A stretch of DNA of 64,000 nucleotides from Parcubacteria bacterium C7867-005. GTDB lineage: Bacteria > Patescibacteriota > Minisyncoccia > Phycocordibacterales > Zambryskibacteraceae. Location of the stretch: NCBI GenBank assembly GCA_001189165.1, contig LFCO01000001.1, positions 156,848 through 220,847 of the forward strand, given 5' to 3'. The position numbers were made by a program, and so were the translations under genes. A model generated the notes under the pieces. The model did not search any database and was not told the origin of the DNA. It saw only the letters and a list, made by a program, of their open reading frames with translations. Shown in pieces: positions 17,304 to 42,211 of the stretch. Within the stretch, counting starts at the first letter, position 1; each line of letters begins with the position of its first letter.

Positions 17304-17305
17304 AT

Positions 17306-17333
17306 TTGTATTATAGCAAATCCATCATATAAT
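17306..17333 (+). promoter_or_regulatory. sigma70-like promoter TTGTAT-16-TATAAT for small ORF 17362..17490
   Basis: -35 TTGTAT 17306-17311, -10 TATAAT 17328-17333 read directly in the sequence. Confidence 0.55.
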
Positions 17334-17361
17334 TTCTTTACCCTTACCCTGGAGGATTTGG

Positions 17362-17490
17362 ATGGCCGCGAAGAAGAGAAAGCCCTCGTATCGTTCGAGC
17401 AGGACTCGAAGCAGGAGTCAGCGGGGACGGTCGGGTGGCAAGCAGAGGCCGGCAAGTAGCCGCTGTCGCTGCTGTGGTCACTGCCTCTAG
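17362..17490 (+). CDS. 42-aa Arg/Ser-rich basic peptide with C-terminal CRCCGHC cysteine cluster (GC-rich cassette 1)
   Basis: GGAGG (17351-17355) 6 nt upstream of ATG; codon-by-codon translation MAAKKRKPSYRSSRTRSRSQRGRSGGKQRPASSRCRCCGHCL, TAG at 17488; GC-rich island in AT-rich context; not in ORF track (<60 aa). Confidence 0.5.
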   Translation: MAAKKRKPSYRSSRTRSRSQRGRSGGKQRPASSRCRCCGHCL

Positions 17491-17526
17491 GTAGAGGCCG
17501 GGCGATAAGTTCGCCCGAACATGTTC

Positions 17527-17554
17527 GCGCCGGAACGATGTTCCGGCGCTTTTG
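17527..17554 (+). terminator. rho-independent terminator (10-bp perfect stem GCGCCGGAAC/GTTCCGGCGC, loop GAT, then TTTTG)
   Basis: Stem arms 17527-17536 and 17540-17549 are exact reverse complements; T-run follows. Confidence 0.8.
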
Positions 17555-17585
17555 ATACCAAAAAATATTTTGCTACCATAGTGTT

Positions 17586-18002
17586 ATGGTCAGAATACTT
17601 GAATTCCCATCCTTTCCAGCCCCAGAGGAACCAGAGAAAGACAGACTGGATTCAGAAGAAGTCGAGGGTGCCGATGATCCAAAAGTCGTAGATATCTCAA
17701 GCAAGCAAAAGCACATCGAAGGCGGGTTGGTAAACCCACGTCTACAGGCACTGATCGAAAGACTCAAAATCTTGGGCATTGAAGATTTCCCAATCTCTTC
17801 AATAAAATATAGAAAAATAGTCAAACTATTCGAACAAATGCCAGCGCAACGGCAGGCAAGGCTCTTGGCAGAAAACAGAAAGGTTGTAGCTGAATACAGC
17901 GATGAGGACATCAGAACCTGGTTAGAAAGACCAGAAAGCGAATGGGAAGCCCGCCCTGCTTTCTTTTATGCACTCTACGAAAGGTGTCTACTCGGACGCT
18001 AG
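17586..18002 (+). CDS. hypothetical acidic protein (138 aa)
   Basis: ORF with host-like composition; its stop overlaps the ychF stop (convergent); the antisense ORF 17573..17911 is low-complexity and was rejected. Confidence 0.5.
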   Translation: MVRILEFPSFPAPEEPEKDRLDSEEVEGADDPKVVDISSKQKHIEGGLVNPRLQALIERLKILGIEDFPISSIKYRKIVKLFEQMPAQRQARLLAENRKVVAEYSDEDIRTWLERPESEWEARPAFFYALYERCLLGR

Positions 18003-18817
18003 ACCAAAAACTCGATTACATCGCCGTCTTGGACGATGTACTCTTTGCCTTCTATTCGGACCCAGCCCTTCGCACGGGCGGCAGCATATGAACCCGCTTC
18101 CATCAGCTTGTCATAGTGGATGACTTCTGCACGAATAAATTTTTCTTGAAAGTCTGTATGGATAGATTTGCCAGCCTCCGGTGCGGTCGCATTCCTCTTT
18201 GTTGTCCAAGCTCGGCTCTCCTTCTCTCCTGTAGTGAAGAAAGTGATTAGGTCGAGTAGTTCGTACCCAGATTTGATGAGGTTGTCCATACCTGTACCGA
18301 AGATTGGATCTATCTCTATATAAGGTCCAGGGATTTTAGAAAGGACTTCCCTCTTATTCTCTGCAGCTTCTGAAGTATTGATCACATACAAGATGGGCTT
18401 ATTGATCCCCCCCGCTTCGAGCTCCATGTTGATGATCTCTATGTCGAACAGTGGATCAACCTTGTCGTGCACATGGATAATATCTTTATCCTCGAAGATT
18501 CTTACAACTTGGATGATGGCGTCTACTTCACGGATGTTTTGGAGAAACTTATTGCCGAGCCCCGCACCCTCGCTCGCACCCTTCACCAAACCGGCGATGT
18601 CTACGAACTCCACAACAGCAGGGACTACTTTCTTGGACTTACTCATCTCTGCGAGCTTATCCAGGCGCACATCAGGAACAGGGACGATACCTACAGACGG
18701 ATCTATGGTGCAAAAAGGATAGTTCTCTGCAGGCACACTCTTTTTGGTTAGTGCGTTAAAAAGCGTGGACTTCCCCACGTTTGGCAGACCCACAATTCCT
18801 ACGGATAACTTAGACAT
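17999..18817 (-). CDS. ychF: ribosome-binding ATPase YchF (short form)
   Basis: GIVGLPNVGKSTLFNALT P-loop, Obg/YchF G-domain, C-terminal TGS-like GWVRIEGKEYIVQDGDVIEF. Confidence 0.9.
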   Translation of the reverse strand: MSKLSVGIVGLPNVGKSTLFNALTKKSVPAENYPFCTIDPSVGIVPVPDVRLDKLAEMSKSKKVVPAVVEFVDIAGLVKGASEGAGLGNKFLQNIREVDAIIQVVRIFEDKDIIHVHDKVDPLFDIEIINMELEAGGINKPILYVINTSEAAENKREVLSKIPGPYIEIDPIFGTGMDNLIKSGYELLDLITFFTTGEKESRAWTTKRNATAPEAGKSIHTDFQEKFIRAEVIHYDKLMEAGSYAAARAKGWVRIEGKEYIVQDGDVIEFLV

Positions 18818-18920
18818 ATAGCAAGAATAGCTTTTTTTATGTGTTTTTACGAGGCTATTGACATTCGTATATCAGTGTGACATTCTTATGGAAGAACGCC
18901 CACCTCAATCTGGAAGGTCC

Positions 18921-19340
18921 ATGAAGAAGCGTACGCTGGTCTCGTTCGGCATCACCACGGTCGTCATCTTGCTCGCCCTCACTGTCACTCAGACGCTCTG
19001 GAGGGACGTCGACTACAAGATTGAGATCGGCTCGATCATCTCTTTCGAGGATTCGTGGGGAGCAAGCGCGGGAACTATGGGTGAGAATTGTCTCGCCCCA
19101 AGCTTCGGCCGGGCGCGTGTCGTGGCAGTAGACGGCGCTTGGGTCACCCTCGAGGATGCCGGCGCGTACTACTGGTCCTGGACCAACACGCCTGGGTGTG
19201 ACAGGTTCCAAAGAACTCGCCACTGGGTGAGAAAGAACATCATGAACAAGGCCGCGATCGAAGCAAGGGCAGCCAAGCACGACAGCCACTTACAAGAAAC
19301 GAACCTGGCTGACTATCTTGCAGATCAAGAACGCCAGTAA
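18921..19340 (+). CDS. GC-rich small signal-anchored protein (cassette 2, 139 aa)
   Basis: GGAAGG 5 nt upstream of ATG 18921; MKKRTLVSFGITTVVILLALTVTQ signal/TM; strong GC3 bias in this frame; own terminator at 19370. Confidence 0.6.
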   Translation: MKKRTLVSFGITTVVILLALTVTQTLWRDVDYKIEIGSIISFEDSWGASAGTMGENCLAPSFGRARVVAVDGAWVTLEDAGAYYWSWTNTPGCDRFQRTRHWVRKNIMNKAAIEARAAKHDSHLQETNLADYLADQERQ

Positions 19341-19369
19341 GTACTTTCCCTCTCAAGAGAAGAGGGTGC

Positions 19370-19403
19370 GCTCACCGGGACCAGTCTCGGTGAGCATTTT
19401 TCA
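19370..19403 (+). terminator. rho-independent terminator (GCTCACCG/CGGTGAGC stem, then ATTTTTCATTTTATTT)
   Basis: 8-bp stem 19370-19377/19388-19395 followed by a T-rich tract. Confidence 0.7.
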
Positions 19404-19445: not shown

Positions 19446-19474
19446 TTGACAGTGGCATATTGAATCAGTATTGT
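19446..19474 (+). promoter_or_regulatory. sigma70-like promoter TTGACA-17-TATTGT for cassette 3
   Basis: -35 19446-19451, -10 19469-19474. Confidence 0.55.
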
Positions 19475-19516
19475 GGCGAAAGGAACACACAATCACAAGC
19501 ACACAAGCGAGGTTCC

Positions 19517-19855
19517 ATGATAGTGAAAGAGGAAGTTCGTACGGACATGGTGATCGAGTGCACCACGGATGACACTGGGAGATGGCACTTCAGGAAGGCT
19601 GGTGAGGAGGTCGAGGTGACCTTCTGCTCTGGCGCAATCGTCTTCGTCGAAGGTATTCCCGAAGAATCCAAGAAGAGGTTCGCGGTTCGTTCGGACAGGC
19701 CCAGGGCCACCGTCGAAGTTCGTGGTGACAAGATCAGCTTCGCCTTCGGCAGGCAGACAAGGGCACCGTACATCCCCACCCGTGAGAAACACCGCGTGAT
19801 GATCACCGTGAGGTCCGTCCCCCACAAGGGACACAAGGAACGCCAAACCGCCTGA
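19517..19855 (+). CDS. GC-rich hypothetical protein (cassette 3, 112 aa)
   Basis: GAGG upstream of ATG 19517; MIVKEEVRTDMVIECTTDD...; promoter and terminator flank it; the two antisense ORFs were rejected (no signals). Confidence 0.55.
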   Translation: MIVKEEVRTDMVIECTTDDTGRWHFRKAGEEVEVTFCSGAIVFVEGIPEESKKRFAVRSDRPRATVEVRGDKISFAFGRQTRAPYIPTREKHRVMITVRSVPHKGHKERQTA

Positions 19856-19880
19856 GAGGGCGGTTATATTATTTTGCTTT
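19846..19880 (+). terminator. rho-independent terminator (AACCGCC/GGCGGTT stem, stop codon in loop, then ATATTATTTTGCTTTTTT)
   Basis: 7-bp stem 19846-19852/19859-19865 and a T-run. Confidence 0.65.
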
Positions 19881-20468
19881 TTTGCCGAGGTTGAAAACTT
19901 TGCGTTTGAGGTTTTCTCTACGGCTCATGCCAAAGTGTTTGAGGTAACCGAATTTGTGAACGTAGATAGGTGACAAACCAGAGAACCACAGGATCCCCTT
20001 CTTTAGCTCATTTGTTGTATCTCCAAATATAATTCTCTGGATAATAGGTGCCGTGTCAGAGGTGATGACCATCGCAGCTGATTTACCTTTCAGCAACCTC
20101 TTCCACATGTACCCACCGGAGACGAAGTTGTAAGCGAACCCAGGCAACCATACACGGTCGAACAACCCCTTTAGTAAAGCGGGCATCGTAGACCACCAGG
20201 ATGGATAGAATATAACAAAGTGGTCAGACCAACGAACGTTTTCTTGGAAAGAAAGTAGGTCAGGCTCGAGCTCTTGGCGGAGTCTGTATCCGTGGTGGAG
20301 GATGGGGTCAAACTGCATATCTCCGATGTTCATACGGCGAACCTCGTGACCTGCTTCTGTGGCTCCGCGTTCATATTCATTGGCCAATGTGGAATTCAAA
20401 CTATCCTCATCTGGATGCCCTAAGAGGATAAAAATCTTTTTTTTCTTTGTATTGAATAGTCCAAACAT
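19869..20468 (-). CDS. flavodoxin-like fold NAD(P)H dehydrogenase (quinone) family protein
   Basis: KIFILLGHPDEDSLNSTLANEYERG...HFVIFYPSWWSTMPALLKGLFDRV matches the NQO1/MdaB-type flavodoxin_2 family. Confidence 0.8.
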   Translation of the reverse strand: MFGLFNTKKKKIFILLGHPDEDSLNSTLANEYERGATEAGHEVRRMNIGDMQFDPILHHGYRLRQELEPDLLSFQENVRWSDHFVIFYPSWWSTMPALLKGLFDRVWLPGFAYNFVSGGYMWKRLLKGKSAAMVITSDTAPIIQRIIFGDTTNELKKGILWFSGLSPIYVHKFGYLKHFGMSRRENLKRKVFNLGKKAK

Positions 20469-20472
20469 ATTG

Positions 20473-20700
20473 TTATAAAAGTTTTTGTAATTCGGCCTGG
20501 TTTTTGCGCATCACCTCCATGGTAGCCTCGAGCTCGGATTTACCTGACTTCTTTTTGGCTTCGATCTCTTCTCCAATTCTCTTAAAGAAGTCAGGGTTCT
20601 TTTCTACCATGGCCATGATCTTCTCCTGCTCGGCCTCAGGTACGCCCTTCATCTTGGACTTCATCACCTGTTTGAGCAGAAAGTTTTTGAACATACCCAT
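20473..20700 (-). CDS. small helical hypothetical protein (75 aa)
   Basis: ORF only; Lys/Glu/Met-rich helical sequence; no family recognised. Confidence 0.45.
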   Translation of the reverse strand: MGMFKNFLLKQVMKSKMKGVPEAEQEKIMAMVEKNPDFFKRIGEEIEAKKKSGKSELEATMEVMRKNQAELQKLL

Positions 20701-21028: not shown

Positions 21029-21232
21029 ATGAGTGAATCACTAGAAAACTACTTAGATGCCCCGCTAGCGGACATAGATCCCAGCGTCCCCGCTTTCACT
21101 TACGAGGCCAAGGATATCGAGAAATTCCTGAAAGAAGGCAAGACGTATGCAGAAATCGAGGAGATGCAAAGGGTGGCGAACGAGAACATACTAGCCGGTA
21201 AATATCGTACAGAAAAAAAGCGAGCTGCTTAG
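21029..21232 (+). CDS. small hypothetical protein (67 aa)
   Basis: ORF followed by hairpin GCGAGCT-GCTT-AGCTCGC plus T-run (about 21220-21255). Confidence 0.45.
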   Translation: MSESLENYLDAPLADIDPSVPAFTYEAKDIEKFLKEGKTYAEIEEMQRVANENILAGKYRTEKKRAA

Positions 21233-21266
21233 CTCGCCTTCTTTCTTTTACTCTCCAAGCTTTGGT

Positions 21267-22315: not shown

Positions 22316-22344
22316 TTGACAAACACGCATAGTCGATGTAATCT
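22316..22344 (+). promoter_or_regulatory. sigma70-like promoter TTGACA-17-TAATCT for cassette 4
   Basis: -35 22316-22321, -10 22339-22344. Confidence 0.6.
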
Positions 22345-22397
22345 CGCACGAGAGTTTGCTCTGCCCGCACTTCCACCAACCACTCGTAGAGGGTCCA

Positions 22398-22709
22398 ATG
22401 GCGGCCAAGAAGAAGCCCATGAACGACGCGCGGAAGTCCGAAGTACTGATCAAGATCCTGAAGTCCATCCTTCTCGCGCAGTTGGAAGAGGAGGGTGATA
22501 ACCTGGCTGATGAAGCCACCAAGAAGATGGCTGAGCTGATCGTCGATGTGTCAGAACTAGCCGGCATCTCCTATGAGGATCTCATCGAGGTGGGGCGCCC
22601 TGTGTGCCACGACCTACTCGATGAACTCATCAGTAACGCGATGGAGATCCTCGGGGATCAGAAGGCCGAGAAGGCCACAGGGTCGACGGGCACGCAAGAA
22701 GGCCGGTGA
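22398..22709 (+). CDS. GC-rich acidic hypothetical protein (cassette 4, 103 aa)
   Basis: GAGGG upstream of ATG 22398; MAAKKKPMNDARKSEVLIKILKSILLAQLEEEGDN...; very high GC3; terminator at 22719. Confidence 0.55.
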   Translation: MAAKKKPMNDARKSEVLIKILKSILLAQLEEEGDNLADEATKKMAELIVDVSELAGISYEDLIEVGRPVCHDLLDELISNAMEILGDQKAEKATGSTGTQEGR

Positions 22710-22718
22710 AGTGGGCGC

Positions 22719-22752
22719 AGAGCTGTCAGACAACAGCTCTCTTTTAATTTAT
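22719..22752 (+). terminator. rho-independent terminator (AGAGCTGT/ACAGCTCT stem, loop CAGACA, then CTTTTAATTTAT)
   Basis: 8-bp stem 22719-22726/22733-22740. Confidence 0.7.
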
Positions 22753-22754
22753 AA

Positions 22755-22940
22755 CTAATCTTTGTGTTCGTGCTTTATGAACTTTACTCCGAGGTAGTAT
22801 GGCCAGATGATGATGGCCAAAACACCTTTCCAGAAGCTTAGTTTCAAGTAGCCGATAGTGAACAACCATCCGATCATCCACAAAGTACTCAACCCATCAT
22901 TACTCACGATAATATTATTCATTTCATTCATTCTATTCAT
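22755..22940 (-). CDS. small membrane protein (61 aa)
   Basis: Two hydrophobic segments (LWMIGWLFTIGYL, VLAIIIWPYYLGV); ORF only. Confidence 0.4.
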   Translation of the reverse strand: MNRMNEMNNIIVSNDGLSTLWMIGWLFTIGYLKLSFWKGVLAIIIWPYYLGVKFIKHEHKD

Positions 22941-24716: not shown

Positions 24717-24786
24717 CTTGTGATTCTAACATTCTAGGCTATCAAAAAAAACAAAATACCCCATAAGTGGGATATTTTTGGTTTTG

Positions 24787-24859
24787 TGGACCCTACAGGA
24801 CTCGAACCTGCCACCCCCTCATTGCAAATGAGGTGCTCTACCAGATGAGCTAAGGGCCC
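24787..24859 (-). tRNA. tRNA-Ala (anticodon UGC)
   Basis: Cloverleaf folded by hand: acceptor GGGCCCU/AGGGUCC with G3:U70, D-stem GCUC/GAGC, anticodon stem CCUCA/UGAGG with loop UUUGCAA, T-loop TTCGAGT, discriminator A73; CCA not encoded. Confidence 0.9.
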
Positions 24860-24945: not shown

Positions 24946-24973
24946 TTGACTTATTAAAAAACACTGGTATGGT
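24946..24973 (+). promoter_or_regulatory. sigma70-like promoter TTGACT-16-TATGGT for cassette 5
   Basis: -35 24946-24951, -10 24968-24973; the 24969 ATG of the track ORF lies inside the -10, so the start was moved to 25008. Confidence 0.5.
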
Positions 24974-25007
24974 GACCTCAGAGCACACCCACACACGGAG
25001 CAAACCC

Positions 25008-25385
25008 ATGCAGTATTCTGATCTCCCGAAAGCGACATTCATCGGCGTAGCCTCGAATGCCCTCGACCTCTCTTTCCTGCTCGAGGAAGCAATGATTGGG
25101 ACATGGGGACCATTCCTCTACTGCGATCGAGCCCGCGGTGGTCCGAACTCTTGCCGAATCCTCAGTCAGGTGGCGACGGAGTACACAGAGACCGCCCCAC
25201 TTGTGCGGGCGATGGGCTGTACAAGCATGGCCATCGATCTCTTTCGAAAGGATTCCTTCTCGAAAGCGCGATTCGATCCAGCAACACCTCCAGCCCAAGG
25301 CGCAGTCAAGAGTTGGGAGGTGAGCCTCGCTAGCGCTACCGCCCATCACTTAGTGATCGTTAAGGCGGTATGGCGCCTTCCTTGA
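25008..25385 (+). CDS. GC-rich hypothetical protein (cassette 5, 125 aa)
   Basis: GGAG 9 nt upstream of ATG 25008; MQYSDLPKATFIGVASNALDLSFLLEEAMIGTWGPFLYCDRARGG...; strong terminator immediately after stop. Confidence 0.5.
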   Translation: MQYSDLPKATFIGVASNALDLSFLLEEAMIGTWGPFLYCDRARGGPNSCRILSQVATEYTETAPLVRAMGCTSMAIDLFRKDSFSKARFDPATPPAQGAVKSWEVSLASATAHHLVIVKAVWRLP

Positions 25386-25387
25386 CA

Positions 25388-25428
25388 CGGCAACTCTCTG
25401 GAGTTGCCGTTCTTTATTATTTATTTTT
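25388..25428 (+). terminator. rho-independent terminator (9-bp stem CGGCAACTC/GAGTTGCCG, loop TCTG, then TTCTTTATTATTTATTTTTT)
   Basis: Exact 9-bp reverse complement arms 25388-25396/25401-25409 plus a long T-run. Confidence 0.85.
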
Positions 25429-27706: not shown

Positions 27707-27752
27707 ACAAATATGATACTATATTTTCAGGACCCGCACAAAGGAGAGGTAC

Positions 27753-27941
27753 ATGAAGCAAAGGACGTTAGCCGAAGACGCAACGAGTGGTAAGCCCAGG
27801 CTCGACACCATGACCCGAAGGAGAGCGGAAGCTGCACTTGATCGTGAGATCAGAACAGCATACTCCAACAAGCTTTCGGGCCACCCGACCTGGACACCCA
27901 TCAACTACCACGATGGTCGCGGTACGCCAGTGAGGCCCTAA
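27753..27941 (+). CDS. GC-rich small basic protein (cassette 6, 62 aa)
   Basis: AGGAGAGG 3 nt upstream of ATG 27753; MKQRTLAEDATSGKPRLDTMTRRRAEAALDREIRTAYSNKL...; terminator overlaps the uvrA stop. Confidence 0.5.
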   Translation: MKQRTLAEDATSGKPRLDTMTRRRAEAALDREIRTAYSNKLSGHPTWTPINYHDGRGTPVRP

Positions 27942-27942
27942 G

Positions 27943-27985
27943 GGAGTAGCAGAAATGCTACTCCTTCTTCCTTTTATTTTTCTTC
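27943..27985 (+). terminator. rho-independent terminator (9-bp stem GGAGTAGCA/TGCTACTCC, GAAA loop, then TTCTTCCTTTTATTTTTCTTC)
   Basis: Arms 27943-27951/27956-27964; the uvrA stop codon (27958-27960) lies in the 3' arm. Confidence 0.8.
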
Positions 27986-30615: not shown

Positions 30616-30660
30616 GCCCTAGGGGTTAGATACGAACAAACTATATCATAAAAACCTGAT

Positions 30661-30689: not shown

Positions 30690-30738
30690 AGTGAGAGGCC
30701 CCCGATGTACATCTGTCCACACATTCCGGAGACAGCGC

Positions 30739-31107: not shown

Positions 31108-31128
31108 ACGAACGTCTACCACCTCCAC

Positions 31129-31160
31129 CTCCGCCCTCACAGGCGGAGTCTTATTTTTTA
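31129..31160 (+). terminator. rho-independent terminator (CTCCGCC/GGCGGAG stem, loop CTCACA, then TCTTATTTTTTATC)
   Basis: 7-bp arms 31129-31135/31142-31148; T-run overlaps the uvrB stop. Confidence 0.7.
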
Positions 31161-33214
31161 TCTTCTTTATCCAGTCGCTTTTCTAAGAGTCTGATCTCAT
31201 CTCGGATTATAGCTGCTGTCTCAAAGTCGAGATCTCTCACTGCGATTTCCATTTCTTCTCTTTTGGCTTTGATAAATTTCTTTGGATTTTTGTCGAAAAT
31301 CAACTCATCTGTTTCTAATAAAACATTTACAGCGTTGTGGTGCTCACGCTCAAGAGTGTCAGTGATGTCTTTGATTTTTTTCTTGATAGTGATCGGGGTG
31401 ATGCCGTGCTTTTTGTTATAAGCCATCTGTATCTCCCTTCTTCTTTTTGTCTCCCCCATCGCCCTCTCCATCGAGCCGGTGACTGTGTCTGCGTACAAAA
31501 TAACCTTACCTTCTACATTCCTCGCAGCACGACCAATAATCTGGATAAGGGAAGTCTCTGAGCGTAGGAAGCCCTCTTTGTCCGCATCGAGGATACCAAT
31601 AAAAGTAACCTCGGGTAAATCGAGTCCTTCTCGAAGCAAATTTACACCAACCAAACAATCAAAAACCCCTTTACGGAAATCTGTGAGGATCTCTATACGC
31701 TCGATGGTCTTGATCTCACTATGTAGATACCTCGCTTTGATTTTCTTTTCCTTTAGAAATTCGGATAAATCTTCTGCCATCTTCTTGGTGAGGGTGGTAG
31801 CGATCACCCGACCACCCTTTTTAATCGCTTTCTCAGTCTCATTTATAAAATCACTGATCTGTCCATCATAGTTTCCCTTACTCTGTATTGGTCGCACGGT
31901 CACTTCTGGATCGATGAGTCCTGTGGGCCTGATCACTTGCTCGACTACTTTCTTACTGTTTGCTTTCTCATAGACACTTGGTGTAGCTGAAGTGAAGATC
32001 ACCTGACCAATCCGCTTTTCAAATTCATCGAACATGAGTGGTCTATTGTCTTTGGCTGACGGGAGTCTGAATCCATGCTCAACCAATGTTTCTTTCCTTG
32101 ATCTGTCACCGGCAAACATCCCACCGATCTGAGGAATCGTGACGTGGGATTCATCTATGATCGTGAGGAAGTCTGCACTACCGTCTTTCTTGTGGGGGAA
32201 ATACGAGAGCAGTGTGTCTGGTGCCTCACCAACTTTTTTGCCAGAGAAATGCCTGGAATAATTTTCTATGCCGTTGCAGTAACCGACCTCACGAATGAGT
32301 GCGAGGTCGTATGATGTTCTCCTTTTTAATCTATCTGCTTCCAAAATTTTTCCGTCTTTTTTAAATTGTTCTAGCTGTTTGTCTAGCTCCAGCTTGATAC
32401 TCTGTATAGCCTTTTTCACCTGCTCTTCATCGGTGATGAAATGCTTTGCGGGGAAAAGATAGAAAACTTCTGGTTCACTGATCACCGTCCTCGACACTCC
32501 GTCTATACGCTTTATCGCGGAGATATGGCTGTCTTCTATCTCTATCCTATATATAGTCTTCTCTCCTGTGGGCATGATTTCTACTGCATTGCCGAGTGCT
32601 CTAAATGTTCCTGATTTGATATCCGAATTCGTACGAGAGAAATGGATATCGATCAGTTCTCTGATAAAATCCGCACGAGAGATCTTGTCTCCTTTAGAGA
32701 TTTTCATATTCACCTTCTCATATTCTTCTGGTGAACCTAAACCGTATATACAAGATACAGAGGCGACGATGATTACATCCTTTCTGGTTAAAAGAGCCTG
32801 GGTTGAAGCGTGCCTCAGCCTCTCGATCTCTTCGTTGATCATAGCTTCTTTTTCTATATAAGTATCCGTCACCGGCATATATGCTTCGGGCTGATAATAA
32901 TCGTAGTAAGAAACGAAGTAATGAACCGCATTGTCTGGGAAGAATTCTCTGTACTCTTGGGCGAGTTGTGCGGCCAGGGTTTTATTGTGAGCGATGACCA
33001 GAGTAGGTTTACCTATCTGCTCTATGACATTTGCGGCTGTGAAGGTTTTACCCGATCCGGTGACACCTAGGAGGGTTTGTTTGTCCAATCCATCTTTAAT
33101 ACCGGAGACGAGCTCCTTGATAGCTTTGGGCTGATCCCCCGCTGGTTTAAATTCATTTCTGATCTTAAAAACTGACATTTGTCGAATTATACTTTTTTCA
33201 AACCCCAAAAACAA
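31151..33214 (-). CDS. uvrB: excinuclease ABC subunit B
   Basis: FKPAGDQPKAIKELVSG, helicase motifs, C-terminal UVR domain. Likely real start MSVFKI at 33178, with TATAAT (33186-33191) 7 nt upstream and no SD, so possibly leaderless. Confidence 0.93.
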   Translation of the reverse strand: MFLGFEKSIIRQMSVFKIRNEFKPAGDQPKAIKELVSGIKDGLDKQTLLGVTGSGKTFTAANVIEQIGKPTLVIAHNKTLAAQLAQEYREFFPDNAVHYFVSYYDYYQPEAYMPVTDTYIEKEAMINEEIERLRHASTQALLTRKDVIIVASVSCIYGLGSPEEYEKVNMKISKGDKISRADFIRELIDIHFSRTNSDIKSGTFRALGNAVEIMPTGEKTIYRIEIEDSHISAIKRIDGVSRTVISEPEVFYLFPAKHFITDEEQVKKAIQSIKLELDKQLEQFKKDGKILEADRLKRRTSYDLALIREVGYCNGIENYSRHFSGKKVGEAPDTLLSYFPHKKDGSADFLTIIDESHVTIPQIGGMFAGDRSRKETLVEHGFRLPSAKDNRPLMFDEFEKRIGQVIFTSATPSVYEKANSKKVVEQVIRPTGLIDPEVTVRPIQSKGNYDGQISDFINETEKAIKKGGRVIATTLTKKMAEDLSEFLKEKKIKARYLHSEIKTIERIEILTDFRKGVFDCLVGVNLLREGLDLPEVTFIGILDADKEGFLRSETSLIQIIGRAARNVEGKVILYADTVTGSMERAMGETKRRREIQMAYNKKHGITPITIKKKIKDITDTLEREHHNAVNVLLETDELIFDKNPKKFIKAKREEMEIAVRDLDFETAAIIRDEIRLLEKRLDKEDKK

Positions 33215-33224
33215 AGATCCCAGG

Positions 33225-33494
33225 CTACAAAGTAGCCTGGGGTGATTCGGGCGAACCCTTGAAGTTGAGTTCGAGAACCATCGTCTTGTGGCCGATGGGC
33301 TTCTGCTCGCCCCCCTCTCGCTTCACGGCCTCGCGCTCTTCGTAGCACTCATTGCATACGTGAGCGTTCCGAGTGCTTGGGGTGAGGAGACCCCAGATCT
33401 GGTGAGTCGCGCGTTCCTTCTTGCAGTCCTCGCAAGGAATGGGGAAATATCCCCTGAGATGATTGAGGACGTTCGGGATCACAGGAGCAGGCAC
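33225..33494 (-). CDS. GC-rich zinc-ribbon protein (cassette 8, 89 aa, GTG start)
   Basis: GGAGG 4 nt upstream of GTG 33494; CEDCKKERATHQ...17 aa...CNECYEE (two CxxC); GC3 higher on this strand than on the overlapping plus ORF; 10-bp hairpin CCCAGGCTAC/GTAGCCTGGG (33219-33241) plus T-tract downstream on the minus strand. Confidence 0.5.
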   Translation of the reverse strand: MPAPVIPNVLNHLRGYFPIPCEDCKKERATHQIWGLLTPSTRNAHVCNECYEEREAVKREGGEQKPIGHKTMVLELNFKGSPESPQATL

Positions 33495-33533
33495 GGGACC
33501 TCCGTTGGGCGTGGATGGGAGCGGTCTTTGTAG

Positions 33534-33562
33534 AAAATATAACTATTTCAAATACTTTGCAA
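33534..33562 (-). promoter_or_regulatory. sigma70-like promoter TTGCAA-17-TATTTT (minus strand) for cassette 8
   Basis: -35 at 33557-33562 and -10 at 33534-33539 on the minus strand; overlaps the tgt stop codon. Confidence 0.45.
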
Positions 33563-34748
33563 GGAAATCTGTCTTGAGTTTTTCAAAATTATCATCCAGA
33601 ATCGCTTGGCGCATTCGCTTCACGAGGTTAGTGATGAAATACAAATTATGTATAGAACCCAATGTTGACGCGAGCATTTCCTTGGATCTATACAGGTGTG
33701 AGAGGTAGCCGAGCGAATAATCTTTACATGTTGAACATCCACAGCGTGGATCGATCGGCCCCTCTGCCTCTACGAATTGTGCATTGCCGATATTTATTTT
33801 ACCTTCTTCCGTATACAGAGTTCCCCCACGAGCGCGTCGTGTTGGTGCTACACAGTCAAAGAGGTCTACACCATTCTCTACACCCATGAAGAGATCTTCT
33901 GGCTCGCCTATACCGAGCAAGTGTCTAGGTTTATCTTTGGGCAAGACACCATTCACCCAGAGTACTGCGGTACTCATATCTTCTTTGGCAAAAGATCCGC
34001 CAATACCAAATCCATCAAAATCCATTCTACCGATAAATTCTGCAGACCTTTTGCGCAAATTCTCCTCTCGTCCACCTTGGACAATTCCAAATAATGCCTG
34101 AGACTCTGAATTGATTTTTGATTTGTGATATTCCAAACTTTTTTTGGCCCACCTATGTGTACGATCTAAAGCTTCTTCTTGATAAGCAACAGTCTCTGAT
34201 GGTGAGGTGCATTCATCAAAAGCAAATATAATATCCGCACCGAGGTTATGTTGAATCTCTACAGATTTCTCTGGGGTGATGTAGTGAAGTGACCCATCAA
34301 GATGAGAGCGAAAAGAAACTCCATCGGACCCTATAGTGGCTAGCCTGGGTGCTTCATGATCCATCGATCGCTCTGATATCAGTCTGGATGGATCAGTGAT
34401 AGAGATAACTTTGTTCAAGTTTTTGCCGTAGGCAGCACCGAGGGAGAAAACCTGGAATCCACCCGAGTCAGTCATGATCGGACCAAACCAGTTCATGAAT
34501 TTGTGTAGACCTCCAAATTTTTTTACCCTCTCATCCCCCGGTTGTAGATATAGATGGTAAGTATTTGCTAATACTACATCTGCGCCAGTATTCTTTACAT
34601 CATCAGTACTCAAAGCTTTGACTGTGGCCTTGGTACCCACGGTCACAAACGCTGGGGTGGGTATCACTCCGTGAGGCGTCTCCAAAGTACCTGCACGACC
34701 AAGCTTGCCTTGGAGCTCTTTTATTATGCTGAATTTGATCGGCTTCAT
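33543..34748 (-). CDS. tgt: queuine tRNA-ribosyltransferase
   Basis: TPHGVIPTPAFVTVGTKATVK, VLANTYHLYLQPG, GPIMTDSGGFQVFSL, C-terminal CxCxxC zinc site. Confidence 0.92.
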   Translation of the reverse strand: MKPIKFSIIKELQGKLGRAGTLETPHGVIPTPAFVTVGTKATVKALSTDDVKNTGADVVLANTYHLYLQPGDERVKKFGGLHKFMNWFGPIMTDSGGFQVFSLGAAYGKNLNKVISITDPSRLISERSMDHEAPRLATIGSDGVSFRSHLDGSLHYITPEKSVEIQHNLGADIIFAFDECTSPSETVAYQEEALDRTHRWAKKSLEYHKSKINSESQALFGIVQGGREENLRKRSAEFIGRMDFDGFGIGGSFAKEDMSTAVLWVNGVLPKDKPRHLLGIGEPEDLFMGVENGVDLFDCVAPTRRARGGTLYTEEGKINIGNAQFVEAEGPIDPRCGCSTCKDYSLGYLSHLYRSKEMLASTLGSIHNLYFITNLVKRMRQAILDDNFEKLKTDFLAKYLK

Positions 34749-34787: not shown

Positions 34788-34816
34788 TTGACCTAACTCT
34801 AGGATAAAGATATAAA
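34788..34816 (+). promoter_or_regulatory. sigma70-like promoter TTGACC-17-TATAAA for cassette 9
   Basis: -35 34788-34793, -10 34811-34816. Confidence 0.55.
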
Positions 34817-34851
34817 TATGAAGGAACAGATTTCTCACGCCGAGGTATACC

Positions 34852-35070
34852 ATGGGCAGCACAGCAATAGATCGCATGTTCCAAGGCAAGTCGGTCAGAG
34901 AGTTGATTGCCATTGGCACAGAGGAGTCTCGCAAGGAAGCACAGCGCCTGATGGAGATCGAAGCTGACTGCATGGGTATACGCAACCACTACCTATGGGG
35001 CCTGTTTTCCGGACAGAGCAAGCTCCGTGGCCTACAAGACGATGAAGCAGTCACCAAACCCCCGAAGTAA
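34852..35070 (+). CDS. GC-rich hypothetical protein (cassette 9, 72 aa)
   Basis: GAGG upstream of ATG 34852; MGSTAIDRMFQGKSVRELIAIGTEESRKEAQRLMEIEADCMG...; stop codon sits in the loop of the terminator. Confidence 0.5.
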   Translation: MGSTAIDRMFQGKSVRELIAIGTEESRKEAQRLMEIEADCMGIRNHYLWGLFSGQSKLRGLQDDEAVTKPPK

Positions 35071-35095
35071 GTTCGGGGGTCTCTTATTATCTCTT
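35058..35095 (+). terminator. rho-independent terminator (9-bp stem ACCCCCGAA/TTCGGGGGT, loop GTAAG, then CTCTTATTATCTCTT)
   Basis: Arms 35058-35066/35072-35080; overlaps the mreB stop (35087-35089). Confidence 0.75.
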
Positions 35096-36103
35096 GGCGA
35101 TTATAGATTTTTTATAAACATCCAAATGATCTAGAGCGACGCCAGTCCCTTTGGCCACACAAAAGATAGCTTCTTTGGCAAGCTGGGCCTTAACACCTGT
35201 TCGCCTAAAAACAAGTTCAGGTAAATGTCGGAGTTGGGAAGATCCACCGGTCATAATTATTCCTCGGTCTATAATATCTGAAGAAAGTTCTGGAGGGGTT
35301 TCTTGGAGTACATCTTTGATCGCTTTGACCATCTCTCGGAGTTCTTTGCTTATCGCTTTAGTGATCTCATTAGTTTTAATTTCCACTGTACGAGGAAGGC
35401 CCAGGATAAAATCCCTACCTTTCACCGACATGGTGAGCTCTTCGTCCATAGGTACAGCAGATCCAACTTTAATTTTTATATCTTCTGCGGTCTTATCACC
35501 GATAGCGAGGTTGTATGTTTTCTTTATATAGTCTGCTATAGCAGCGTCTATCTTGTTCCCCGCCACCTTAACCGAAGTAGATGCGACGATGCCGCCAAGG
35601 GATATGACAGCGACATCAGTAGTACCACCGCCTATATCTACAATCATGTGCCCCGCTGCCTCTTGGATGGGTATACCCGCACCAATAGCAGCAAGTATTG
35701 GTTCCTTAACCACATAGGCATTTTTTGCACCAGCCTTTATCGCCGCCTCCACAACTGCACGACGCTCAGTGGAAGTAACCCCCGCAGGCACAGAGATCAA
35801 CACATCAGGTTTAAAAATGTTCCACTTGCCCATCGCTTTGTTTATGTAGTAGCGGAGCATTGCCTCAGTCACTCTATAATCAGCAATCACCCCATCCTTC
35901 ATAGGTCTATAAGCGATGATGTTCTCAGGTGTACGACCTATCATGGTCTTAGCCTCTGCTCCTATGGCCAAAATTTTGTTGTCATCTTCTGATACAGCAA
36001 CCACTGAAGGCTCGTTTAGGACAATGCCTATTCCAGGTACAAAGACCAAAATGTTGGTTGTGCCCAAATCTATACCGAGTTTCCTCACTCCAAAGAATTT
36101 CAT
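35087..36103 (-). CDS. mreB: rod shape-determining protein MreB
   Basis: LGIDLGTTNILVFV..., DIGGGTTDVAVISLGG, IIMTGGSSQLRHL actin-fold motifs. Confidence 0.95.
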   Translation of the reverse strand: MKFFGVRKLGIDLGTTNILVFVPGIGIVLNEPSVVAVSEDDNKILAIGAEAKTMIGRTPENIIAYRPMKDGVIADYRVTEAMLRYYINKAMGKWNIFKPDVLISVPAGVTSTERRAVVEAAIKAGAKNAYVVKEPILAAIGAGIPIQEAAGHMIVDIGGGTTDVAVISLGGIVASTSVKVAGNKIDAAIADYIKKTYNLAIGDKTAEDIKIKVGSAVPMDEELTMSVKGRDFILGLPRTVEIKTNEITKAISKELREMVKAIKDVLQETPPELSSDIIDRGIIMTGGSSQLRHLPELVFRRTGVKAQLAKEAIFCVAKGTGVALDHLDVYKKSIIAKR

Positions 36104-39361: not shown

Positions 39362-39750
39362 GGCTTTCTACGGAAACCACTGAGGCGACTACCCAACCCT
39401 CTCATCATATTTTTTACGGCTCTCTGGCCACGTCTCATTAGGCTTATTTTTCTCCCCTTTTCGCTGATTAATTCCCTAGCCAATTCGCTTTCAACTAAAT
39501 CTATGGCTGAGTACAAATCTTCCGCTTCAGATACAGCATAATTATCAAAACCCGCACCACTTATCTTGACCTCTGCTCTAAAAAAATCCCCATTCTTGTG
39601 GTGTTTGGTCGTTTTACCAACCTCAACATTAAAAATAGCTCCCTCTTTGCCTTTTCCTAAAAACTTTTCCAAAGTTCCTATCTTTTTTTGAGCGTATTCC
39701 CTGATAGCATCCGTCAATTCTATCCCCGTCGCTTTGAGATTTATATTCAT
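39358..39750 (-). CDS. hpf: ribosome hibernation promoting factor / RaiA family
   Basis: MNINLKATGIELTDAIREYAQKKIGTLEKF... typical sigma-54-modulation/HPF fold, basic C-tail. Confidence 0.85.
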   Translation of the reverse strand: MNINLKATGIELTDAIREYAQKKIGTLEKFLGKGKEGAIFNVEVGKTTKHHKNGDFFRAEVKISGAGFDNYAVSEAEDLYSAIDLVESELARELISEKGRKISLMRRGQRAVKNMMRGLGSRLSGFRRKP

Positions 39751-39814
39751 AGGCCTTGGTTAAAATTTATAATATCTCCCTCTATATTCTACTAGAACCC
39801 TTTTTCTTTTTCAT

Positions 39815-40879
39815 TTAAACACTACCGGTGTCTAACCATTCTTTACGGACAATAAAATATATATCAAGGAGAGCAAACAACAAACCAAGAGCGAGAGGGC
39901 CCAGGAGGAAACCGAGTGGACCAAAAAGGCCCAGGCCTCCGAGGATCGAAAGCAGTATGAGGAACGGATGGATATGCATCCCCCTCTCCAACAACTTTGG
40001 ACCAAGGAAATTATCCACTAGACCAACCGCCGTTACCCCCCAAACAAACAAACCAACTGCATGATAAGTAGATCCAGACACAAACAGATAAATAATGGCC
40101 GGGCCTATAACCAGAGAAGTCCCGAAGCCGGGTATCATCGCTGCTATGGCTGCCACGCTTCCCCACAAAAGCGCACTCGGCACGCCAAAAATTAAGAATC
40201 CGAGAGATGTAAGGGCGCCCTGAACTATAGCAACGACTAATATACCCTTGATAACAGAATTAACTGCAAGTGAAAGTCTCTTGAAAATCTCTTCATCGTG
40301 GTTGTCTTTTAGTGGGCTCATGGCTAAAACTGTTTTCTTGATCGCTTGTCCATCTTTGAATGAGAAATAGAGAGCGATGAGGAAAACAAAAACACCGACC
40401 ACTATTTTCAAAAGATTAGAAAGTATAGAGCTAAGGTGTGGAATCAGCCATGCGAGACCCTCGCGTGCATATTGACTCAAATCTATAGAAAATCCGGCTT
40501 GGTTTGGTACAAAGTATTTCAAACCATTGATCGCACCCTCTGAGCCGAGAGTGAGAGTGCTCGAGCCTTCGTTGGTCATCAGGTAAAAATAAAGAGTAGA
40601 AGCTTCTTGGAAAATCTGAGAAGCAAAAAAGGAGATAGGTAAAATCACCAAAATAAAAACCAAAATGACGCTCAAAATAGCAGAGAGTCCCCTTTTGCCA
40701 CCTGTAAAGGAGAGGATATATTTGTGAAGTGGGTCAAAAACCGTGGCGAAAACCACCGCCAGTATGAGCGAGTACAGAAACGGCCAAAAAATTGAGAAGA
40801 TTAAAATAAATACAAGAGAGAGTAATACTATCAAGAAATAAAGTTCTGACTTGCGATGAATCATGTTTTTATTATACAA
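39815..40879 (-). CDS. AI-2E family transporter (PerM/UPF0118)
   Basis: 8 TM helices, conserved AMIPGFGTSLVIGPAIIYLF segment. Confidence 0.85.
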   Translation of the reverse strand: MYNKNMIHRKSELYFLIVLLSLVFILIFSIFWPFLYSLILAVVFATVFDPLHKYILSFTGGKRGLSAILSVILVFILVILPISFFASQIFQEASTLYFYLMTNEGSSTLTLGSEGAINGLKYFVPNQAGFSIDLSQYAREGLAWLIPHLSSILSNLLKIVVGVFVFLIALYFSFKDGQAIKKTVLAMSPLKDNHDEEIFKRLSLAVNSVIKGILVVAIVQGALTSLGFLIFGVPSALLWGSVAAIAAMIPGFGTSLVIGPAIIYLFVSGSTYHAVGLFVWGVTAVGLVDNFLGPKLLERGMHIHPFLILLSILGGLGLFGPLGFLLGPLALGLLFALLDIYFIVRKEWLDTGSV

Positions 40880-40884
40880 CCAAA

Positions 40885-41748
40885 CTAGTCAAAAATATTG
40901 ATCAGGAATGTGTCTATCTCTCTCTGATCCATGTTGTAGAAAGTTGTTTTGTCCTTATGTATTTCCCTGGCCAGTTTTTCTCCAACAAATCTCCAGTGCC
41001 ATGGCTCATACTGATAAAAAGAATTACCTTTCGGATAAGAGAGGATGAATCCGTATTTATAAGCATTGTCTACTAGCCACTCAAATTCCTTTGTCTGGTC
41101 AAACGCGATAACCAATGCTCCGGTGAGTGTTTTAGTGGTGAGGTCTACTGTAGTACCAAGCTGGTGCTCTGAGTATCCCTGATCAGCGGAAAAGGCATTG
41201 GCCCCGGAGCCATAAGTAACCTTGTAGCCGAGTTTTAGGTTAATCTGCTCGTCGAATGAGCGGTAGCCAGAAGAGATCAAAATATCCAAGTCGTCATCTT
41301 TGGCATCTTCGAGCATATCCTCGAGGAATGATCTGGCCTGACTATGAAATTTGATATCTCTTTTTTCATAAACAAAATCATCTTCTATGAGTGATACCCC
41401 GTCTGGTATATAGTTCTCGTTCAAGAAATATACCTTTGAGTATTTCTGTAAGAGCTCCTTGTCGAGTTTTCGAAGTTTTTCTAAGTCACCGACTGTATCA
41501 GATATATCTCCAATCTGTTCTTTGAATTCATCATTGATCCTGCGTTCATTCTCTAGTCCGAGATTTAGATCGTTATTTTTCTGTTCTTGCGCCAAAACTA
41601 CCGCTTTTAGACTCTCAACTTCTTGGTTCAAGTGTTTTTCTGTTGCCTTGAGGTTAAATCTTTCTTTAATAAGAAAAAAGTACCCGCCGAGCACTGCGAG
41701 TATGATCACTACAATCAACGCCCTATCCCTTTCTAGATACGCTTTCAT
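40885..41748 (-). CDS. D-alanyl-D-alanine carboxypeptidase, VanY/M15B family
   Basis: N-terminal TM; SGYRS, SEHQLGTTVDL, EPWHWRF zinc-peptidase motifs. Confidence 0.8.
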   Translation of the reverse strand: MKAYLERDRALIVVIILAVLGGYFFLIKERFNLKATEKHLNQEVESLKAVVLAQEQKNNDLNLGLENERRINDEFKEQIGDISDTVGDLEKLRKLDKELLQKYSKVYFLNENYIPDGVSLIEDDFVYEKRDIKFHSQARSFLEDMLEDAKDDDLDILISSGYRSFDEQINLKLGYKVTYGSGANAFSADQGYSEHQLGTTVDLTTKTLTGALVIAFDQTKEFEWLVDNAYKYGFILSYPKGNSFYQYEPWHWRFVGEKLAREIHKDKTTFYNMDQREIDTFLINIFD

Positions 41749-41836
41749 AATTAAATTTTAGCATGGTTAAGCCAAATGAAGAAAACATAATTAAAAGAGC
41801 GCCACCTCATACGAGGGGCGCCTGGAGCACATCAGA

Positions 41837-42094
41837 TCACTTCGGGACCTTCTCCCCCGCCGAGCCGGTGTCGACCGGAGGCTTCACCGGAGCACCGACC
41901 CCAGCACCTGCGTCGGGGTTCTTCGGAGGCCTGGGCGCGACCCTGTGCGGGATGGAGAACGACCCCGTCACACCCTTGTCCTTCTTGCTCGAGCGCCTCA
42001 CCAGGTAGACACCCAGGATGATGAGCCCGAGGACGACCGAGGTAACGATCTTGTGCTGGGAAAGCAGTGACAGCAGTTCGTCCATCGACGGCAT
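41837..42094 (-). CDS. GC-rich small membrane protein with Pro/Gly/Ala-rich tail (cassette 10, 85 aa)
   Basis: GGAGGG 4 nt upstream of ATG 42094 (minus); MPSMDELLSLLSQHKIVTSVVLGLIILGVYLV TM; very high GC3 on this strand; bulged 9-bp hairpin plus T-run downstream (about 41775-41822); the overlapping plus ORF was rejected. Confidence 0.5.
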   Translation of the reverse strand: MPSMDELLSLLSQHKIVTSVVLGLIILGVYLVRRSSKKDKGVTGSFSIPHRVAPRPPKNPDAGAGVGAPVKPPVDTGSAGEKVPK

Positions 42095-42211
42095 GTGCCC
42101 TCCATGAGGGTGATAGGTTGGTGGGAGATCAAAGCCTATACCCAAAATGCAGTAATGGCCCAAAAAAGTCAAACGGTAGTTAATAACATCAAATTTGTAT
42201 AAAATAAACCA

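Follow-up and report, generated by a model that had tools for sequence, protein, structure and literature searches.

Phage morons are the extra genes known from HK97/HK022-type phages (definition in PMC3594210). In the genome of Parcubacteria bacterium C7867-005 we analysed a stretch of 64,000 nucleotides (contig LFCO01000001.1, forward-strand positions 156,848 to 220,847; hereafter the window), in which ten small GC-rich genes, named S1 to S10, lie in gaps of a housekeeping backbone. As read from the sequence, these units resemble morons in being single genes with their own promoter and terminator, set between conserved genes of preserved order, in their deviating GC content (0.54-0.64 against 0.39-0.475), and in being present or absent among collinear relatives, the unit junctions measuring from 0 bp to several kb. 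They differ from morons in that their backbone is a cellular housekeeping chromosome (leuS, ychF, uvrABC, tgt, mreB, priA-def-fmt), that no meaningful PHROG matches and, for S2, S3 and S5, no IMG/VR relatives were found, that S7 and S9 at least have long been inherited vertically, and that the units depart from the backbone also in their mode of translation initiation. On this basis we propose, with moderate confidence, that they are moron-like, monocistronic, fast-evolving accessory genes in variable slots of a conserved leaderless backbone, and that their GC-richness likely came about through exchange within the family. The anatomy of the units and their accessory, slot-bound nature are well supported. 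Import or replacement within the family is the most likely cause of their composition, and this is the least certain part of the proposal.

Other known systems share part of these properties. Like ORFans and accessory islets, the units are short, without homologs, fast-evolving and placed at variable points of a syntenic core. Prokaryotic ORFans have on average about 3.9% lower GC and 12.5% lower GC at third codon positions (GC3) than conserved genes (PMC4706650). The units, in contrast, lie 12-20 GC points higher and share a uniform anatomy consisting of a consensus -35 element, a CA-rich leader, a Shine-Dalgarno (SD) motif and a strong terminator. Leaderless or non-SD initiation with a minority of SD-led genes is found in Bacteroidetes and Actinobacteria. 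As in the leaderless and non-SD genomes with a minority of SD-led genes that form classes of their own in GeneMarkS-2 (PMC6028130), most genes of the window lack an SD motif, many start right after a -10 box and a small subset is SD-led; here, however, this subset is made up of compositionally distinct, small, monocistronic accessory genes, mostly antisense. In a literature search we found no account of a leaderless genome of the Candidate Phyla Radiation (CPR) with an accessory class that is GC-rich and SD-led. Integron cassettes lack promoters, carry attC at their end and are arrayed beside an integrase. The units are likewise small, single-gene and of foreign composition, but they carry promoters, have no shared end repeats and are scattered over 25 kb; a scan of the larger open reading frames (ORFs) turned up no integrase. 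With foreign islands they have atypical composition and codon usage in common; on the other side, no donor group yielded homologs in the large-database searches, made with S2, S3, S5 and S7, the sole homologs found (of S2, S7 and S9) being in sister Parcubacteria, flanking repeats are missing, only S5 lies beside a tRNA gene, and neither integrase nor transposase occurs among the larger ORFs scanned. The ordinary explanation, that accessory genes are exchanged within the family, is viable.

Islands were detected with a 120-nt sliding window of GC content. Ten of them, 250-510 bp long and with 53-59% GC, stand out from a window mean of 42.7%, all within 17.3-42.2 kb; the remaining 39 kb hold just two others of 200 bp or more, 48511-48800 and 48961-49170, which are weaker and lie within the gene at 48486-50276. 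The original prediction for this stretch, made from the letters only, had announced ten GC-rich small genes with a pronounced third-position bias. Both points were borne out: an ORF of 42-139 amino acids (aa), with GC 0.54-0.64 and GC3 0.60-0.84, opens at every one of the ten starts it had named, against GC 0.39-0.475 and GC3 0.34-0.54 in 24 neighbouring ORFs, and GC3 was not uniform across the window. The sole exception among the neighbours is a conserved gene of 75 aa at 20473-20700 (-), with GC3 0.63, GC at second positions of 0.22 and no family match; its raised GC3 is also seen in its orthologs in relatives. Codon choice separates the units from the core as well, with AAG for Lys at 91% against 34%, TTC for Phe at 92% against 42%, ATC for Ile at 82% against 37% and TCG for Ser at 30% against 8%. 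The relative synonymous codon usage of the ten pooled ORFs is negatively correlated with that of the genome's own long genes (r = -0.25), and pooled codon usage correlates with that of the core genes of the GC-richest relatives (L001, L003 and L008, GC3 0.64-0.66) at r = 0.60-0.72. Amino acids are shifted towards those with GC-rich codons, Arg, Ala and Pro being more frequent and Lys, Ile and Asn less so. Translational selection was rejected as an explanation: the genes for ribosomal proteins, RpoA and DnaK have GC3 of 0.34-0.43 and prefer AAA, ATA and AGA, and in the ribosomal-protein and DnaK genes AAG makes up 43% of Lys codons and ATA 43% of Ile codons, against 91% and 6% in the units. Mean GC across the ten units goes from 0.34 in the 50 nt upstream and 0.30 in the promoter spacer up to 0.56 in the leader and 0.59 in the ORF, and then falls to 0.47 in the terminator region and 0.40 beyond it; the GC-rich part of the units is therefore their transcribed part. 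Codon usage and the possession of own promoters and terminators together support the earlier description of the genes as compositionally foreign, autonomous and unexplained by normal operon structure.

Two more GC-rich small ORFs were found in the same genome about 3.5-4.6 kb past the 3' end of the window (locus L167, 4811-5900), on the opposite strand between core genes. The first (4952-5320) encodes 122 aa with GC3 0.81, and the second (5631-5870) a membrane peptide of 79 aa with GC3 0.76; each follows a GGAGA (GGAG core), and the second has a TTGACT-17-TATTAT promoter. The class of GC-rich small genes therefore reaches beyond the window.

The ten units, with their GC islands and predicted signals (promoters given as -35 element, spacer length and -10 element), are the following.

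S1, 17305 to 17553, + strand, island 17321-17570: 42-aa Arg/Ser-rich ORF 17362-17490 ending in CRCCGHCL; weak promoter TTTGTA-17-TATAAT at 17305-17333, GGAGG at 17351-17355, hairpin 17527-17549 followed by a T-run.
S2, 18858 to 19400, + strand, island 18881-19310: 139-aa ORF 18921-19340 with an N-terminal transmembrane (TM) helix and a conserved two-Cys domain; TTGACA at 18858-18863, leader with GGAAGG, terminator 19370-19395.
S3, 19446 to 19885, + strand, island 19501-19890: 112-aa ORF 19517-19855; TTGACA-17-TATTGT at 19446-19474, CA-rich leader with GAGG at 19509-19512, terminator 19846-19865, its T-run overlapping the stop codon of the flavodoxin-like gene.
S4, 22316 to 22750, + strand, island 22321-22760: 103-aa acidic helical ORF 22398-22709; TTGACA-17-TAATCT at 22316-22344, 47-nt C-rich leader, AGAGG at 22388-22392, terminator 22719-22740.
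S5, 24946 to 25420, + strand, island 24961-25420: 125-aa ORF 25008-25385; TTGACT-16-TATGGT at 24946-24973, T-free leader with GGAG at 24997-25000, terminator 25387-25410.
S6, 27695 to 27976, + strand, island 27721-27970: 62-aa ORF 27753-27941, with AAGGAGAGG at 27741-27749; TTGACT-16-TACTAT at 27695-27722, overlapping the uvrC start on the other strand, terminator 27941-27966, overlapping the uvrA stop codon.
S7, 30661 to 31158, + strand, island 30671-31180: 122-aa ORF 30739-31107 with a C-terminal VACFCRKPA motif; TTGACT-17-TATGGT at 30661-30689, GGAGA at 30728-30732, terminator 31129-31148 abutting the uvrB stop codon.
S8, 33219 to 33563, - strand, island 33201-33540: 89-aa ORF 33494-33225 with a GTG start and CxxC...CxxC, in the same orientation as its neighbours; weak promoter CTTGCA-16-TATATT at 33563-33536 inside the 3' end of tgt, GGAGG at 33503-33499, terminator 33241-33219.
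S9, 34788 to 35090, + strand, island 34831-35100: 72-aa ORF 34852-35070; TTGACC-17-TATAAA at 34788-34816, back-to-back with the leaderless tgt promoter, GAGG at 34842-34845, terminator 35058-35080 beside the mreB stop codon.
S10, 41789 to 42172, - strand, island 41761-42150: 85-aa ORF 42094-41837 with one TM helix and a Pro/Gly-rich tail; TTGACT-17-CATTTT at 42172-42144, GGAGG at 42103-42099, bulged hairpin at about 41823-41798 followed by a T-run.

The start regions of units and core genes were compared for signals of initiation. A purine-rich, SD-like motif complementary to CCUCC precedes the start codon in all ten small ORFs; among 45 core genes it was found once, and among random positions in 10%. 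A GGAGG-type SD had been expected in each unit; the full GGAGG is confined to S1, S8 and S10, and in the others GGAG, GAGG or GGAAGG takes its place, 3-8 nt ahead of the start. Conversely, a TAnnnT box ending 4-10 nt before the ATG was found in 22 of the 45 core genes and in none of the ten small ORFs (12% of random positions). About half of the core genes thus appear, from these motifs, to use leaderless mRNAs. Core starts without an SD occur throughout the window (for example 17303-, 27706-, 34748-, 36103-, 36185+ and 46256+), and relatives of 38-53% GC likewise have SD-less, leaderless-looking core starts. From the counts of both motifs, the units therefore differ from the backbone in initiation architecture besides composition.

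The promoters and terminators agree with what had been anticipated for most units. A TTGACx element, a spacer of 16-17 nt and a TAnnnT-like -10 element are readable for about eight of them, S1 and S8 being weaker, and the leaders, 22-47 nt long, are C/A-rich and G-poor except for the SD. Stem-loops followed by T-runs were recovered by a scan for S1-S9, directly 3' of which, and on the small-ORF strand, lie 9 of the 11 strongest terminator-like hairpins between 17 and 36.5 kb; the bulged hairpin of S10, which the scan did not flag, was read by eye. Several of these terminators overlap the stop codon of the convergent core gene. Seven of the ten units are antisense to both neighbours, and in a typical one the promoter stands back-to-back with that of a leaderless core gene, while the terminator abuts the stop codon of the core gene on the other side. 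Each gene had also been described as alone in its gap, which is correct except for S2 and S3, which occupy one gap, and for S1, which shares its gap with an ORF of 138 aa. Together, these signals mark out each unit as a self-contained, predicted transcription unit from promoter to terminator. Where a unit separates two genes that adjoin each other in relatives, the core gene downstream has a predicted leaderless promoter of its own within the insert (tgt, in the window and in the related locus L084); slot occupation would therefore go with operon splitting. The 138-aa ORF (17586-18002, +) and a further one of 67 aa (21029-21237, +) are of host-like composition and lie opposite to - strand neighbours; the former has a leaderless-type start, the latter its own strong terminator (21220-21237). 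Both may belong to the slot-gene population, as older members or as members of another kind.

We compared the window with 80 GTDB loci centred on uvrA. Gene order is strongly conserved across these loci, with vanY-hpf-fmt-def-priA, then mreB-tgt-uvrB-uvrA-uvrC-ddl, followed at a distance by the flavodoxin gene and by ychF-DUF5671-leuS. Junctions were counted with the window included and called closed when the flanking genes overlap or lie at most 40 bp apart. Closed junctions were found in 9 of 17 genomes (16 relatives and the window) for mreB/tgt, 17 of 45 for tgt/uvrB, 6 of 56 for uvrB/uvrA and 14 of 67 for uvrA/uvrC; in the remaining genomes these junctions, which house S6-S9, measure 0.2-6.8 kb. 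When the ten proteins were searched against 166 loci, only S2, S7 and S9 had matches, in L081-L086. The large-database searches left out S1, S4, S6, S8 and S10 and covered 5.8 billion proteins for S2, S3 and S5 and, by HMMER, 1.84 billion representatives for S7; they returned homologs for S2 and S7 only, S3 and S5 having none in the 5.8 billion proteins. Scans of IMG/VR with S2, S3 and S5 gave no relatives, a metagenome scan with the S2 family alignment gave nothing, and one with YchF gave mostly distant taxa on short contigs of no use for synteny. A check named with the original prediction was whether the gaps are empty elsewhere: many relatives have empty slots, in which the flanking genes abut. 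S2, S7 and S9 have homologs in sister Parcubacteria; these homologs, too, are GC-rich relative to their own genomes.

The S2 homologs come from sister Parcubacteria, are 83%, 59% and 56% identical to S2 and share long invariant motifs with it; two adjoin ychF as in the window and one (L081) lies elsewhere. In L082, next to ychF, promoter, leader and terminator can be aligned with those of the window. A JGI contig carries a ychF-sized gene, an S2 homolog and a flavodoxin gene, and S3 is absent between them. In L081 (35% GC) the S2 homolog is preceded by its own TTGACA promoter and by a similar leader (CCACC-TCAA), and is followed by a terminator of its own; its GC is 54%, the GC3 of its neighbours being 0.21-0.38. 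Across genomes of 35%, 43% and 48% GC, the family keeps 54-59% GC. The only full-length match to S7, P0014, has 107 aa, 35-38% identity (E = 1.7e-17 by BLASTP) and a common VACFCR(K/R)PA C-terminus; two other matches are short repeat motifs in long proteins. The S7 homolog occupies the uvrA/uvrB slot of L084/L085, where it is also antisense and where UvrA is 85% identical. Those S2 homologs for which DNA could be retrieved (L081 and L082) and P0014 are all on Parcubacteria contigs; a further match, P0011, is on a short contig that has the same neighbours. The S9 homolog in L084 is 52% identical over 33 aa (E = 1e-8) and lies after tgt on the mreB side; this locus has an additional gene of 175 aa before mreB. 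In L084 the GC of the S7 homolog, the S9 homolog and one more small slot ORF is 54-55%, and GGAG- or GAGG-type motifs precede the first two. The leaders of the homologs of S2 (L082), S7 and S9 have diverged except for the SD motif, which is degenerate (AGGT) in the S2 homolog of L081. That contig had been considered as coming from a non-CPR organism (PAS-GGDEF-EAL and glyoxalase genes); this was rejected, its OmdA, cupredoxin and HMA-DsbD2 genes and SD-less starts being common with the window. The S2 homolog of L081 (35% GC contig) adjoins this OmdA/DsbD2/cupredoxin cluster, not ychF.

These homologs also inform on the age and rate of change of the units. When the gaps of the window and of L084 are aligned, the -35 and -10 blocks are conserved both in the S7 and S9 promoters and in the neighbour's leaderless promoter; the S7 and S9 units are therefore older than the divergence of the two lineages. 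At the protein level S7 and S9 share 35-37% identity with their counterparts and the flanking genes 78-92%, and four-fold sites are equally saturated in S7/S9 and in the flanking genes. Overall, the proteins of the units evolve fast (32-70% identity against 78-95% for flanking genes). S2 shows another pattern: between the window and L082, 24% of its four-fold sites differ, against 61% in the adjacent ychF, and changes polarised with L081 as outgroup amount to 18 from GC to AT and 2 from AT to GC, the ychF control giving 1.0-1.8 to 1. The sequence comparison suggests that S2 is a younger, decaying insert. Three of the five or six units tested are thus lineage-restricted, fast-evolving accessory genes by sequence comparison. 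In the uvrA/uvrC slot, that of S6, relatives have other small antisense ORFs, two of which share a C-terminal ETRPASSE motif; a link of these two with S6 is doubtful, and aligning the small ORFs of this slot from 12 genomes gave no common family beyond the L084/L002 pair.

At the same junctions, low-GC relatives also have small ORFs that are GC-enriched and for the most part antisense; one family of them is conserved as a protein in four genomes. Clade-wide, an SD-like motif precedes 4% of ORFs above 300 aa and 17% of those of 45-150 aa, and small ORFs show a GC excess of +0.064 to +0.077 with the motif and of +0.001 to +0.015 without it (p = 4e-7 and 2e-5). In low- and mid-GC genomes, small ORFs bearing a terminator exceed the core by 5-8 GC points, an excess that is absent from GC-rich genomes.

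On the mechanism, the units would be transcribed by the cell's own sigma-70-type polymerase, each from its own promoter and independently of the flanking genes. In the sequence they are mostly antisense, so arranged that the promoter forms a divergent pair with that of one leaderless core gene and the 3' end converges with the core gene that follows. They would be translated by SD-dependent initiation, while core genes would start leaderless; with SD-led units on a leaderless core, the genome would therefore run two expression architectures in parallel. Slot genes may be exchanged or replaced within the family, either from GC-richer relatives or from a shared pool of elements, and imported units would slowly decay towards the AT-rich host composition. 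Parcubacteria with 53-56% GC occur in the same sample as C7867-005 (PMC4508563).

Several observations weigh against this proposal. No donor was found: tblastn of the ten proteins against the 80 loci, GC-rich relatives included, gave nothing at E < 0.01. S7 and S9 are old residents, as judged from synonymous sites saturated against L084 and from orthologous promoters, and yet the GC3 of S7 is still 0.80, a value not expected from passive decay if the import is old. Had ten units been replaced by homologous recombination, scars would be expected, whereas the GC boundaries are sharp and follow the transcripts, and the adjoining 40 core codons show no rise in GC3 (0.433 against 0.443 in gene middles). 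The clade-wide link between SD and GC is confounded, because G-rich motifs are commoner in GC-rich DNA. Coding is poorly supported for S1, S5 and S6 in a leave-one-out codon model. Finally, the only 16S 3' end among the fetched loci, that of the more distant relative L075 (1-1255, a metagenome-assembled genome of Nomurabacteria), reads GAATAATTCAATTT, without CCUCC; after helix 45 this gene end reads ...CTCGTGGAATAATTCAATTT, with no canonical CCUCC anti-SD tail, and the use of SD motifs by the ribosomes of C7867-005 is therefore not certain.

The strongest competitor of within-family import is that the units are long-term residents whose GC-richness is actively maintained by selection on leadered, SD-dependent mRNAs, with no need for import; candidate pressures would be, for example, stability against AU-preferring RNases, accessibility of the leader, or antisense pairing with read-through transcripts of the core. 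For the composition of the units, import within the family ranks slightly ahead of such selection, to which we give a tentative place as a real possibility. It accounts for a GC rise that runs from the predicted transcription start to the terminator and leaves the promoter spacers at 30% GC, without spilling over into adjoining core codons, and for a trait common to all ten units and the two outside the window. The orthology of S7 and S9 with the L084 units, which are GC-rich in both lineages in spite of saturated synonymous sites, the constant 54-59% GC of the S2 family in genomes of 35%, 43% and 48% GC, and the clade-wide excess of 5-8 GC points in terminator-bearing small ORFs, restricted to low- and mid-GC genomes, point the same way. 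On the other hand, the amino-acid shift looks like a pressure at the nucleotide level and no known mechanism fits; the units have no excess of RNA structure; S2, with its 18:2 excess of changes from GC to AT, is not at equilibrium; and the size of the effect differs, GC3 reaching 0.84 in the window against 0.52-0.58 in L084.

A bolder form of this idea, which we consider rather unlikely, is that the genome has two expression dialects, selection keeping accessory transcripts GC-rich, C/A-leadered and SD-dependent, so that GC would be a selected property of the class and not a scar of transfer. The small genes would then form a translational regulon, switched by initiation that depends on the 30S subunit and the anti-SD, for instance under stress or in hibernation. 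More speculatively, their messages could be tuned to a different translation machinery, for instance one in a partner cell.

GC-biased gene conversion at recombination hot spots between strains would place GC-rich tracts at the variable points of a conserved backbone, which is where the slots are, and the lower synonymous divergence of S2 as compared with the adjacent ychF fits recent recombination. Two adjoining gene ends, the 5' ends of tgt and uvrA, do have raised GC3; however, the adjoining core-gene ends show no rise overall (0.433 against 0.443), the promoter spacers in the same gaps have 30% GC, and conversion tracts would not respect transcript boundaries. Regional GC-biased gene conversion is thus disfavoured, and we regard it as improbable.

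The original prediction had proposed repeated acquisition from a high-GC donor outside the CPR, such as the actinobacterial host of an episymbiont, or else a dispersed family of small proteins. Neither idea was supported. The codons TCG, ACG, CGC, GTC and AAG do look like those of a high-GC genome and the units are missing from many relatives, but S2, S3, S5 and S7 have no homolog outside Parcubacteria contigs among billions of proteins, the homologs that exist lie mostly in the same slots of sister genomes with AT-rich promoters conserved, and the promoters of the units match the organism's own in type and composition, which makes such a donor very unlikely. As to a dispersed family, neither the ten proteins nor the ten DNA islands show similarity to each other, and the islands share no sequence beyond chance 10-12-mers and no end repeats, so a family of repeats or mobile elements was also rejected.

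The coding potential of the islands was assessed with the leave-one-out codon model, in which the annotated frame is best in 7 of 10 units and S1, S5 and S6 are ambiguous; for S1 the model prefers another frame, and for S5 the frame signal is weak (GC at the three codon positions.59/.52/.60). Differences between S2 of the window and of L082 fall 18/5/27 on the three codon positions, a pattern that fits a coding sequence. Every island has long ORFs on both strands, and open antisense frames follow from GC3-rich codon usage. An Rfam scan of the window returned only two tRNAs and nothing in the islands, and folding energies did not differ overall from those of dinucleotide shuffles (sense-strand z from -2.4 to +1.1, mean about 0), on which grounds a structured RNA was rejected. 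That some or all islands are non-coding, being small RNAs or GC-rich intergenic elements with ORFs open by chance, is hardly credible: long ORFs on both strands, the lack of frame preference and of homologs for S1, S5 and S6, and the somewhat better folding of S1 and S8 (z = -1.9 and -2.4) would fit, but S2, S7 and S9 are conserved at the protein level, all ten islands have a correctly spaced SD-like motif before the first ATG/GTG of an island-spanning ORF, and open antisense frames, the Rfam scan and the mean fold z speak against it as given above.

As had been stated beforehand, the proteins belong to no recognised family: Pfam, NCBIfam, PHROG and PADLOC searches of all ten gave no match at a meaningful score, and S8 had only sub-threshold zinc-ribbon matches (DUF7685 and the McsA N-terminus). 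The announced TM anchors and CxxC motifs are seen in the translations, with TM helices in S2 and S10 and a double CxxC in S8. From their sequences we infer mutually unrelated proteins, S2 and S10 being probably membrane-anchored, S8 zinc-ribbon-like, S1 basic and Cys-rich, and S4 acidic and helical. An AlphaFold2 model of the S2 family (predicted local distance difference test score 47.5) was too poor for a fold search. The units do not look like type I toxins, taken as hydrophobic peptides under about 60 aa: a TM helix occurs only in S2 and S10, which are longer (139 and 85 aa) and have soluble domains.

Genomes of the CPR/Patescibacteria have many small genes of unknown function, the expression of which is little known. 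In the window a sharp split can be read from the sequence, between an AT-rich, largely leaderless core and GC-rich, leadered, SD-led orphan genes in variable slots. If this pattern is genome- and clade-wide, it would offer a simple rule to separate accessory small genes from the core and to correct start codons; it would run counter to the AT-rich trend of ORFans and provide a tractable case for the origin of local base composition (import, biased conversion or selection); and it would point to a few candidate lineage-specific proteins with which to study the symbiotic lifestyle.

The source of the window was established by exact look-up of the small proteins (KND48999.1 and others). C7867-005 is a groundwater metagenome-assembled genome of 564 kb and 42% GC, and the paper describing it does not mention the GC-rich islands (PMC4508563). 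S3 is recorded on five contigs, and three fetched Logan and NCBI assemblies, including two from different sequencing runs, show 100% identity with the window in every stretch compared; a chimeric contig or assembly artefact, raised earlier as a possibility, is therefore excluded. The larger ORFs of the window encode LeuRS, a DUF5671 protein, a short YchF, UvrC/A/B, Tgt, MreB, PriA, Def, Fmt, HPF, VanY, a copper ATPase and ribosomal proteins.

Some further features of the backbone were recorded. Bacterial YchF has about 360 aa; that of the window (17999-18817, -) and of its closest relatives has only 272 aa, retains the G domain and the C-terminal domain and seems to lack the middle insertion. 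A cluster of OmdA-like, HMA-DsbD2 and cupredoxin-like genes lies at 43304-47687 in the window and also at 4878-7978 in L081. A tRNA-Ala(TGC) gene (24786-24859, -) is situated directly upstream of S5, the only unit beside a tRNA gene, and a tRNA-Asn(GTT) gene (47688-47762, -) follows the cupredoxin-like gene. Immediately before the uvrA start codon we found a palindrome, CCCTAGGG (30616-30630, -), which is conserved and doubled in L084 (5856-5900) and could be a candidate operator of the uvr genes.

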